NCBI GenBank assembly: GCA_021774335.1
Contig: JAJFJD010000005.1
Span: forward strand, 17,632 to 81,631
DNA: 64,000 nt
Direction: 5' to 3'
Source: Alphaproteobacteria bacterium
Lineage (GTDB): Bacteria > Pseudomonadota > Alphaproteobacteria > UBA8366
The notes beneath the pieces were generated by a model. The model saw only the letters and a program-made list of their open reading frames with translations, did not search any database and was not told where the DNA came from. Of this stretch, positions 11,842 through 14,219 are shown in pieces (within the stretch, counting starts at the first letter, position 1; every line of letters begins with the position of its first letter). The translations under genes and the position numbers were made by a program.

Positions 11842-12300
11842 TCAAGGGACGTCCACGCCGCCGAGCTCTTCCTCAACCAATCGCCTTAACCAATCGCCGA
11901 CCGGCTCTTGATTCTTGGCCGCGGCGAGTTCAATTTTTTCCATCATGGTTTTTGAAACTCGCAGATCGATTGGGACGGTATCGTGCCCGACCGGCGGTGG
12001 AGCACCGAATAGCTGTTCGATCTGCTTAATATGGTCATGATCCTCCAACCATCGGCATGCTTCGGCCGCCGTCAGGGGAATAATTTCTGTCCCACGAGCC
12101 GGTTTCCCTCCTCGGAGAATGGCAGAATAAAAAGACTCCACGCCTCCTTCGGCCGCCAGAAACAAAACCCCATTATCGTTACGAAAGAGGGCCTCTTTGT
12201 AGTCCTCTTCATCGCTTGCCCCGTCGTAGCGGCTTTCGGCAATAAGCTTTGCCTGTTCAGTATTATAGAGATGCCCGCCGACGACTCGCTTTACCTTCAC
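11842..12300 (-). CDS. Hypothetical 152-aa protein with ribbon-helix-helix-like C-terminal tail
   Basis: GTG start preceded by AGGAGTAGGAG. The C-terminal IDLRVSKTMMEKIELAAAKNQEPVGDWLRRLVEEEL has the beta-strand/helix/helix pattern of RHH domains. Last gene of the AT-richer cassette. Confidence 0.6.
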   Translation of the reverse strand: MKVKRVVGGHLYNTEQAKLIAESRYDGASDEEDYKEALFRNDNGVLFLAAEGGVESFYSAILRGGKPARGTEIIPLTAAEACRWLEDHDHIKQIEQLFGAPPPVGHDTVPIDLRVSKTMMEKIELAAAKNQEPVGDWLRRLVEEELGGVDVP

Positions 12301-12335: not shown

Positions 12336-13064
12336 TTATTCTTCAGGAGCTACTGCCGATTGGAAAACAGGCTCACCGGCTAACCAGCGCTCGCCCGCGT
12401 CTGGTTGATCGAGAGCGATATGTAGCGCGGCAATCAACTCGAGAAAATCGGACGAAAGACCTTCTTCTTTCAATCCGGACGACAACCCCTCCAAAACATC
12501 AGAATAGATGTTCTTTTGAGCACTATCATGAGGGATCAGCCTCCAACTCCTAGGGTAGTTCAAATCCTGTGCACAAATTGCCCAGTTGTAAGAGTTATAG
12601 CCGCGGCAAACGAGCGGACGTGCTGGGTACACAGAGCACTGTCCATCCGAAAGAAGAGGACAGAGCACGCGCGCGAAAAGCCGCTCGTAGGAGTTCATGC
12701 CTCGCGTTTGGAGCTCCGCCTCGTGAACCCGTGCCTTTAAGGCTTCCATCTCTTCTGGTGAAAAATTTTCGTTTACGTATGAAACAAGACTGAGCAGCTC
12801 CGGTACAGAAATCTCAACTTGGAGATGGCAACAGTAGTTGCACCCTGCTCGGCATGCCGCCGGTTTTGACGCACCTTTAACGCGCCGCACCGCAGCCAAA
12901 ACGCCACCGGCCAGCGAAACTGAGCTAGCAAAAATATTATTGAGGGTTTCGATCGTATATCCGCGCCGTAACGCCTTTATGACCAGGCGTCGCGCGGCAT
13001 CTGCAATTTTTTCTTCCGGGTCTTCATGAATGTGATTCTGCGAAGTGCTCGTTTTCTCAGCCAT
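12336..13064 (-). CDS. YkgJ/UPF0153-family cysteine-cluster protein (CxxxCxxCC; FliB-like family)
   Basis: AAGGA SD. The N-terminal cluster ACRAGCNYCCH and the second half CPLLSDGQCSVYPARPLVCRGY match the PF03692-type zinc/iron-chelating domain architecture. Confidence 0.8.
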   Translation of the reverse strand: MAEKTSTSQNHIHEDPEEKIADAARRLVIKALRRGYTIETLNNIFASSVSLAGGVLAAVRRVKGASKPAACRAGCNYCCHLQVEISVPELLSLVSYVNENFSPEEMEALKARVHEAELQTRGMNSYERLFARVLCPLLSDGQCSVYPARPLVCRGYNSYNWAICAQDLNYPRSWRLIPHDSAQKNIYSDVLEGLSSGLKEEGLSSDFLELIAALHIALDQPDAGERWLAGEPVFQSAVAPEE

Positions 13065-13132
13065 ACGATTTTTCCTTGCGATTCTTCAACAAGCGAACGC
13101 AGACGAGTAAAGACGACACTCCAACATTGATC

Positions 13133-13171
13133 ACCAAACAAACAAAGGGCCGGCACACTCAGACCGGCCCT
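13133..13171 (-). terminator. Intrinsic terminator after the polylysine mini-protein gene
   Basis: 8-bp GC stem agggccgg/ccggccct (13146-13153 / 13164-13171) with a 10-nt loop. On the minus strand it is followed by UUGUUUGUUUGG. Lies 22 nt downstream of the stop at 13193. Confidence 0.7.
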
Positions 13172-13192
13172 CAATCTTAGTATATTTTGTTG

Positions 13193-13483
13193 TTATTTTT
13201 TCACGGCTCTCTTTTTTCTCACCGGACGCTTCTTCACAGGGCGCTTTTTAACGGGGCGCTTCTTCACGGGTCTCTTTTTCGTGGCTTTCTTCTTCGTGGC
13301 TTTCTTTTTCGATGGGCTCGCGGCTGCCGTTGAGAACAGCAAACCGTCCTTTGTAAGCGAAGCCATAAGCGGCGCTGCAAACGCTACGCCGGTTACCAAG
13401 CCTGTAAGAAGCTTACGCCGCGTATCGTCGACGTTCTTCGAGAGCTCCGGATGAAGGGTATTCTTCTGATTATCTTTTGGCAT
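13193..13483 (-). CDS. Tat-signal mini-protein with polycationic KKRPV-repeat tail (96 aa)
   Basis: GGGAGA SD. Twin-arginine motif DTRRKLLTG plus hydrophobic region LVTGVAFAAPLMASL. Tail SKKKATKKKATKKRPVKKRPVKKRPVKKRPVRKKRAVKK has 18 Lys and 6 Arg in 39 residues. Confidence 0.75.
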   Translation of the reverse strand: MPKDNQKNTLHPELSKNVDDTRRKLLTGLVTGVAFAAPLMASLTKDGLLFSTAAASPSKKKATKKKATKKRPVKKRPVKKRPVKKRPVRKKRAVKK

Positions 13484-13546
13484 AGATCATCTCCCATTCC
13501 CCAATATTCGGGAATCCTATGCCATATTCAGATACCTTACACGGGA

Positions 13547-13561
13547 GCAATGGTTGTGCCA
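13547..13561 (-). promoter_or_regulatory. Sigma54 (RpoN) -24/-12 promoter element TGGCAC-N5-TTGC
   Basis: The minus strand reads tacattaagTGGCACaaccaTTGCtcccgt, which fits GG-N10-GC exactly. It lies about 64 nt upstream of the ATG at 13483, is intergenic, and is correctly oriented. Confidence 0.6.
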
Positions 13562-13676
13562 CTTAATGTAACACAACCACCATTGGCGTGATTCTCGCCA
13601 TTACAATGAACCGACCGAGCCGACGATATGAAACAGACACCACGTTCATGTATCGGTGGCTAAAAAGTTCTTCGGC

Positions 13677-13958
13677 CTATTTTGTCCCGAAAATTACGAA
13701 TTCTTCTTCGACGAATTCATCGACCGCATCGCGCACGTCTTGCTCCGGTGGCTCTGACAAATCAAATTGCTTTTGCAAAAGTTCGGCGATTGTCTCGATC
13801 GAATTTTGCCCATCGCACAATGTCAGTACCAAACCGGCAGTGTGGTTTAGGTAATGCACCCTGCCTCGACAATTGTCGTTTACGACCAAACCTTCCTCTA
13901 CGGAGGAAATCTCTAATCCATCAACCTGCTTTGGAAAGCTGGGCATCGGTCCAATCAT
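13677..13958 (-). CDS. PqqD-family protein (RiPP recognition element / peptide chaperone fold)
   Basis: RVHYLNHTAGLVLTLCDGQNSIETIAELLQKQFDLSEPPEQDVRDAVDEFVEEEFV matches the PqqD (PF05402) signature (xLNxTaxxixxLcDGxxtxxeIxxxLxxxy....DVxxfl). The true start may be M1 or M5. Confidence 0.8.
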   Translation of the reverse strand: MIGPMPSFPKQVDGLEISSVEEGLVVNDNCRGRVHYLNHTAGLVLTLCDGQNSIETIAELLQKQFDLSEPPEQDVRDAVDEFVEEEFVIFGTK

Positions 13959-14219
13959 GCTCCGTAAATATACATTTTAGTCGGAAGGATTATCCCCGAA
14001 CGCAATAAAACGGCAAAATTGGTGGGAGCCGCCTCACGCTCGACGTACCAGAATAACGCCGATAAACACACAGAACGTCAGCCCCGCGCCCCTAATATGG
14101 CCGGCGCGATTAATTGGGTTTCCCGCCATTCTTTCCGCCACGCCCAAACTGCCGCGGCACTGCCACCAACAAATGCCGGCAGGACGCAATCGCGATCATG
14201 GCTCGGCCTAGACGCCGCC

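Follow-up and report, generated by a model that had tools for sequence, protein, structure and literature searches.

A possible sigma-54 promoter and a probable intrinsic terminator flank the peptide gene of an alphaproteobacterial PqqD/YkgJ-like cassette

Promoters of the RpoN (sigma-54) class reportedly follow a -24/-12 consensus of TGGCAC-N5-TTGCW (Barrios et al. 1999). Working examples exist in which the -12 element reads ATGC (E. coli fdhF) or TTGT (E. coli pspA). Two other arrangements of regulatory elements are relevant to small genes embedded in operons. RiPP and bacteriocin operons carry attenuating intrinsic terminators between the genes for the precursor peptide and the modifying enzymes, and intercistronic hairpins confer segmental mRNA stability on the Rhodobacter puf operon, as for its pufBA segment. 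The peptide gene described here resembles each of these systems in part. Like RpoN promoters that are activated from a distance by bEBPs, it is preceded by an exact core with GG-N10-GC that is intergenic, co-oriented and followed by a leader of ~52 nt, and its host has rpoN, AAA+ activators and other exact matches in front of flagellar and nitrogen-scavenging genes. Unlike RpoN systems, its cassette has no recognised upstream activator site or linked activator, and its -24 element forms part of a 12-bp inverted repeat. It also differs from control sigma-54 promoters of the same genus in that the -12 GC is not conserved in orthologous cassettes. As in RiPP and bacteriocin attenuators, a GC-rich stem and a U-run stand directly after the peptide stop codon and before an enzyme-like gene with no promoter visible after them, although here the PqqD-like gene lies upstream of the unit rather than downstream. 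As in the puf operon, stable predicted hairpins stand on both sides of a gene whose product is small and presumably abundant, within a multi-gene unit of an alphaproteobacterium, but the 5' hairpin of the cassette overlaps a promoter-like motif.

The window (the whole stretch of 64,000 nt that was analysed, on contig C35) comes from an uncultured alphaproteobacterial MAG genus with a 5.4-Mb genome of 60.7% GC. The cassette is low in GC (47-52%, versus 61% for the genome) and consists of four genes on the minus strand. A PqqD-like gene of the peptide-binding chaperone type (13677-13958; Pfam PqqD, 1.2e-9) lies 5' of the peptide gene and outside the proposed unit. The peptide gene itself (13193-13483, with its ATG at 13483) has 13 relatives and encodes 96 aa with a twin-arginine-like hydrophobic N-terminal part and a polycationic KKRPV/KKKAT tail. 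The N-terminal 55 residues, which include RRK and the hydrophobic stretch, are nearly fixed among the relatives. The tail repeats differ from cassette to cassette in number and type (KKRPV three to five times versus KKKAT four to seven times; the relatives include P0012 and P0013). A CxxCxxCC (YkgJ-like) gene (12336-13064; PF03692, 9.6e-7) follows 3' of the terminator. PF03692 also includes the flagellin lysine methylase FliB, which may be suggestive for a lysine-rich peptide. The last gene (11842-12300) is conserved in eight cassettes and encodes a 152-aa protein that has no match in Pfam or the PDB. A strand-helix-helix pattern is conserved at its C-terminus, and the model, whose quality does not suffice for a fold search (mean pLDDT only 55), has helices at residues 117-129 and 134-147; this pattern could be a DNA-binding domain. 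A literature search returned no paper that combines PqqD with YkgJ and nothing relevant on sigma-54 and RiPP precursors, and a permissive Rfam scan of 12900-14100 gave nothing above chance. The cassette itself is more unusual than its promoter and terminator, which are both ordinary kinds of element.

Relatives of the cassette were collected from genomes and metagenomes, and the comparison set of 13 comprises 11 close and two divergent cassettes. All 13 share the gene order pqqD, peptide, CxxCxxCC, 147-155-aa gene, and the cassette appears to move as a unit because it is found in two different genomic contexts. In the second context, a gene for a 239-aa pentapeptide-repeat protein lies 5' of pqqD, and some loci have a PhyH-type dioxygenase gene after the 147-aa gene; the copy in the window lacks both. 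These pentapeptide-repeat and PhyH-type genes occur at L027 (2767-3486 and 5789-6646), L062 (1722-2441) and L029 (2225-3097). YkgJ-like paralogues in related families (35-40% identical) were set aside, as they have neither a pqqD or peptide neighbour nor the motif. None of the 13 cassettes has an activator gene nearby.

Upstream of the peptide gene, the minus strand reads tacattaagTGGCACaaccaTTGCtcccgt, with TGGCAC at 13561-13556, the spacer AACCA and TTGC at 13550-13547. This is an exact sigma-54-type -24/-12 motif with GG-N10-GC (TGGCACaaccaTTGC, 13547-13561, minus strand). Its GC is 64 nt from the peptide ATG, and the predicted +1 at about 13535 would leave a leader of ~52 nt. The sequence thus agrees with the earlier note, which had described an exact, intergenic TGGCAC-N5-TTGC match oriented toward the peptide gene at this distance from the ATG. 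The same note put the chance expectation at about 0.1 per window; shuffled sequences give a similar 0.15, but three exact matches are actually present. The other two (2517-2531 on the plus strand and 2540-2554 on the minus strand) lie in the overlapping 3' ends of a methyltransferase and a serine-recombinase gene and are therefore not promoters. These two matches on opposite strands form a 38-bp imperfect palindrome, TGGCACAACAGTTGCCACTAACGGCAAAGAAAGTGCCA, in a low-GC island within the ends of the class I methyltransferase and large serine-recombinase genes. The palindrome shares GTGGCACAAC with the cassette motif and could be a recombinase site or a coincidence.

Across the genome there are 16 exact matches, and 12.6 are expected from base composition, so a match alone is not rare and its weight comes from intergenic position and correct orientation. 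Eight of these are intergenic and oriented toward a gene, where about one or two would be expected. The other seven precede flgE, a FlaG-like gene, urtA, the gene for a peptide-binding ABC protein, a porin-like gene, a membrane protein gene and a small lipoprotein gene that adjoins an activator gene. Since these are typical sigma-54 targets with an exact match, the organism uses canonical TGGCAC-N5-TTGC promoters. Intergenic, co-oriented exact matches in this genome are mostly genuine sigma-54 promoters, and on this ground alone the cassette match is probably real.

The sigma-54-type motif is the only recognisable promoter-class motif in the intergenic region between pqqD and the peptide gene. 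A scan with the sigma-70 consensus finds no site there, and its one hit (14016-13989) lies upstream of pqqD. Several other candidates were judged by eye to be weak or inconsistently conserved, namely -10-like hexamers in the hairpin loop described below (TACATT, TATAAT and TATATA), an RAATAT sequence just 5' of the conserved block, and a GTGGCA-N17-TAAGGT pair. An upstream ORF of 30 codons, from a GTG at 13562 across the peptide ATG, would make the [A/T]TG of the -12 region a start codon. This ORF was rejected because it is interrupted in frame by TGA in L027 and L043 and by TAG in L029 and L030.

The genome contains the proteins that such a promoter would need. One Sigma54_DBD match (232 bits), in an open frame of 533 aa on contig C42, corresponds to rpoN. 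Matches to Sigma54_activat (PF00158) occur on contigs C16, C12, C11, C41 and C34 only, and the claim that the window encodes no activator is correct, as none of them is on C35. Four true enhancer-binding activators are present: an NtrC-like and an NtrX-like protein on C16, a FlbD-like protein on C12 and an NtrC-family regulator on C11. No upstream activator site, expected as a dyad some 80-150 bp upstream, is recognised for the cassette motif, where the upstream dyads are only weak and poorly conserved (for example, CGATA-N21-TATCG). The sigma-54 sites on C11 and C55 have a strong dyad in common, ~120-190 nt 5' of the motif, and this dyad, of the GAGTCTCA-N4-GAGACTC type, is absent at the cassette. 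The dyad TTCGCAAGACGAGTCTCAWTTTGRGACTCAAWGCG common to these two promoters lies outside the window, at about 93,050-93,090 on C11 and 257,850-257,890 on C55, and one of the two promoters is directly 3' of an NtrC-family activator gene. Judging from the sequence, the shared dyad is probably the binding site of that activator and would mark a small regulon.

Conservation of the motif is uneven. Among the 11 close cassettes, conservation is much higher in the ~125 nt before the peptide ATG than elsewhere between the two genes, and AAGTGGCACAACCA is invariant in all 11. TGGCAC at -24 is likewise kept in 11 of 11, and GG-N10-GC in nine. The -12 element reads TTGC in this genome only, ATGC in eight cassettes and ATGT in two (G002 and L061, in which all called gene products are full length). 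Three of the five positions in [A/T]TG[C/T][T/C] vary, between 12 invariant nucleotides on the 5' side and seven on the 3' side, and within a near-invariant stretch of ~60 nt, conservation is lowest in the -12 half. The motif is missing in both divergent cassettes, one of which has TGGCAT-N5-ATTA and the other nothing recognisable. The earlier note had tied its reading to conservation of the motif in homologous cassettes; this is found for the -24 half in every close relative, but the -12 half drifts and neither divergent cassette has the motif.

TTGC is present in all 13 copies of three control promoters from the same genus (flgE, 5/5; urtA, 3/3; porin, 5/5), and the flgE promoter reads TGGCAY-N5-TTGCA in all five of its copies. 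A fourth control, the promoter of the peptide-binding protein gene on C38, has no orthologue in four related genomes. Matches of the ATGC type are not enriched in intergenic regions of this genome, as three are noncoding versus 1.8 expected and none of these is co-oriented. Because the -12 element of the cassette drifts while those of the controls are fixed and ATGC is unenriched, it behaves unlike a selected sigma-54 element. The variants found at the cassette are nevertheless not disqualifying, since those of fdhF and pspA are functional. One public contig (L060, at its position 1) ends exactly one base past the variable C/T position of the -12 element, which may reflect a strain polymorphism at this site that breaks the assembly.

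The earlier note overlooked that TGGCAC lies inside the 3' arm of a conserved 12-bp inverted repeat, TGGTTGTGYTAC-N5-GTGGCACAACCA. As a stem-loop this element reads TGGTTGTGTTAC-ATTAA-GTGGCACAACCA (13551-13579, minus strand), with the left arm at 13579-13568 and the right arm at 13562-13551, and TGGCACAACCA is the 3' arm that contains TGGCAC. The repeat is unique in the window, and its one other match in the genome is unrelated and lies among DnaA-box-like repeats. As RNA, it has a predicted folding energy of -17.9 kcal/mol (z = -5.5), and none of 200 shuffles is as stable. RNAalifold predicts the stem with 91.7% of cells paired across cassettes; no strong hairpin is found in the two divergent cassettes. 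The arms are conserved asymmetrically, with 12 of 12 positions invariant on the right and six of 12 variable on the left. Changes in the upper left arm almost all place C/U opposite G or A/G opposite U, which means that pairing is kept only in the sense-strand RNA. At the base of the stem, the partners of the fixed right arm change in ways that break pairs (G to A three times, G to C once and T to G once), so pairing alone does not explain the conservation of the right arm. Changes on both sides of the stem come from one doubtfully aligned sequence only, and slid controls do equally well. In this genome, the stem gains two G-U pairs through the same A-to-T change that gives rise to TTGC. The inverted repeat alone could account for an invariant -24 half and spacer next to five bases that drift. 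A perfect and well-placed 10-nt sigma-54 match can, as this locus cautions, sit on sequence that is conserved for another reason.

Conserved structures are also predicted downstream of the motif. In the leader (13478-13524, minus strand), UGGCAUAG (13524-13517) could pair with CUAUGCCA (13485-13478), a segment that takes in the start codon. Between these arms lie the Shine-Dalgarno sequence GGGAG (13495-13491) and, just 5' of it, an inner AUUCCC/GGGAAU hairpin. The 59-nt leader folds at -18.8 kcal/mol (z = -2.0), and 89% of the cells in the helix are paired, without any change that affects both strands; the close cassettes keep seven or eight of the eight pairs. The alignment gives moderate support to this putative helix across the peptide start codon.

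The GC-stem and U-rich terminator that was reported after the peptide stop codon is confirmed by its fold and by its conservation in every one of the nine cassettes that were aligned over this region, both divergent ones among them. The U-run is retained throughout, and L043 visibly has the hairpin and U-run too. Located 20 nt after the stop codon (13133-13172, minus strand), it consists of a stem at 13172-13145 followed by UUUGUUUGUUUGG. The consensus scan describes ten pairs, seven of them G-C, a loop of 8 nt and then TGTTTGTTTG. Its RNA is predicted to fold at -21.4 kcal/mol (z = -4.6), and none of 200 shuffles reaches this stability. In 9/9 cassettes, G-C or C-G makes up the seven core pairs save for one U-G, the top pair changes from U-G to U-A in L029, L030 and L043, and a C-G to U-G change also preserves pairing. 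This hairpin is well supported as a probable terminator. The sigma-70 scan finds no promoter-like site between it and the start of the YkgJ-like gene, so the YkgJ-like and 152-aa genes probably depend on read-through. A second conserved hairpin (13072-13098, minus strand) has a 3' arm that covers the Shine-Dalgarno sequence of the YkgJ-like gene (AAGGAA, 13077-13072). Even the two divergent cassettes retain it, with C-G in place of a U-G pair, which suggests that translation of the enzyme-like gene may be controlled here.

The proposal of a sigma-54-controlled unit is sustained by the motif, its orientation and distance, the terminator and the presence of distant activators, but not by the conservation of the -12 element or by an upstream activator site. 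We give a probability of about 0.4 that the motif is a working sigma-54 promoter in this genome. In its favour we count the exact co-oriented match, the enrichment of such matches in the genome, the presence of rpoN and activators, the invariant TGGCAC, the lack of any other promoter class in the region, the low odds (~1e-3 per intergenic region) of even the relaxed TGGCAC-N6-TGC arising by chance, and the conserved terminator with no promoter-like site after it. Against it we count the drift at -12 compared with the controls, the absence of the motif from divergent cassettes, the lack of an upstream site or linked activator, and the invariance of the spacer AACCA, which sigma-54 does not read. 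The overlapping inverted repeat also offers an alternative. If it functions in RNA, as a stem-loop that delimits or stabilises the peptide transcript, then the sigma-54 match would be incidental and transcription would come from the pqqD promoter or from an unrecognised one just 5' of CCAATGG. The 12-bp stem-loop would mark or protect the message at its 5' end, and the terminator hairpin would protect it at its 3' end, such that the peptide segment outlives the rest. The stability of the hairpin, its high level of pairing across cassettes and the upper-stem changes that preserve pairing in the sense-strand RNA fit this explanation, as does the concentration of variation in the five nucleotides just 3' of the stem, which are the supposed -12 element. 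The two G-U pairs gained with TTGC fit it too, and the conserved structures over the peptide start codon and the YkgJ Shine-Dalgarno sequence suggest post-transcriptional control. However, pairs at the base of the stem are broken opposite an invariant right arm, the changes on both sides trace to the one doubtful alignment and are equalled by slid controls, and the divergent cassettes lack a strong hairpin. In addition, no convincing sigma-70 promoter lies upstream, and TGGCAC-N6-TGC is estimated to occur by chance in a 200-nt region at only ~1e-3. We regard an RNA element of this type as somewhat unlikely.

A DNA operator for a dimeric or tetrameric regulator would account for other features of the repeat. 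Its half-sites GGTTGTG and CACAACC are 20 bp apart from center to center (about two helical turns) and invariant in most cassettes, and the repeat recurs in the genome only at the one site among DnaA-box-like repeats. A cassette that is mobile as a unit between two contexts should carry its own control, and the regulator could be its 152-aa protein, whose conserved C-terminal strand-helix-helix pattern may be a ribbon-helix-helix-like tail. Such a regulator might control a non-sigma-54 promoter in the conserved block or repress a sigma-54 one. The fixed right arm and variable left arm are unexpected for a symmetric operator, however, conservation of the AT-rich -10-like hexamers in the loop is inconsistent, and the 152-aa protein has no Pfam or PDB match and a model of low confidence. 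This makes an operator rather improbable. It is more doubtful still that the locus is a composite switch, in which the -24 element of a sigma-54 promoter is buried in a repeat that is bound by a cassette regulator or folds in read-through RNA. If it were, the peptide would be made only when a distant activator and cassette-specific signals coincide, and the cassette would represent a mobile sigma-54 peptide module that is self-insulated and independent of any linked activator.

Sigma-54 control of the peptide gene is plausible but unproven. If it operates, then the peptide gene would be a separately controlled expression module inside the four-gene cassette. RpoN-RNA polymerase would be held at the motif in a closed complex until it is remodeled by a distant AAA+ activator, for which NtrC, NtrX, the FlbD-like protein and the NtrC-family response regulator on C11 are the candidates. 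Transcription would start near 13535 and produce the ~52-nt leader, which may fold over the start codon. The terminator would then end most transcripts, and the fraction that reads through, as a presumably leaky terminator would allow, would supply the YkgJ-like and 152-aa genes. With partial read-through, the peptide message would outnumber the enzyme message. A high ratio of peptide to enzyme message is also what the terminator, together with the two hairpins at Shine-Dalgarno and start-codon sites, predicts. A working promoter would tell when this uncharacterised cassette switches on and would provide a handle for its expression. Sigma-54 control, if true, would tie the cassette to nitrogen status, to the flagellar hierarchy, or to the signal of the C11 regulator.
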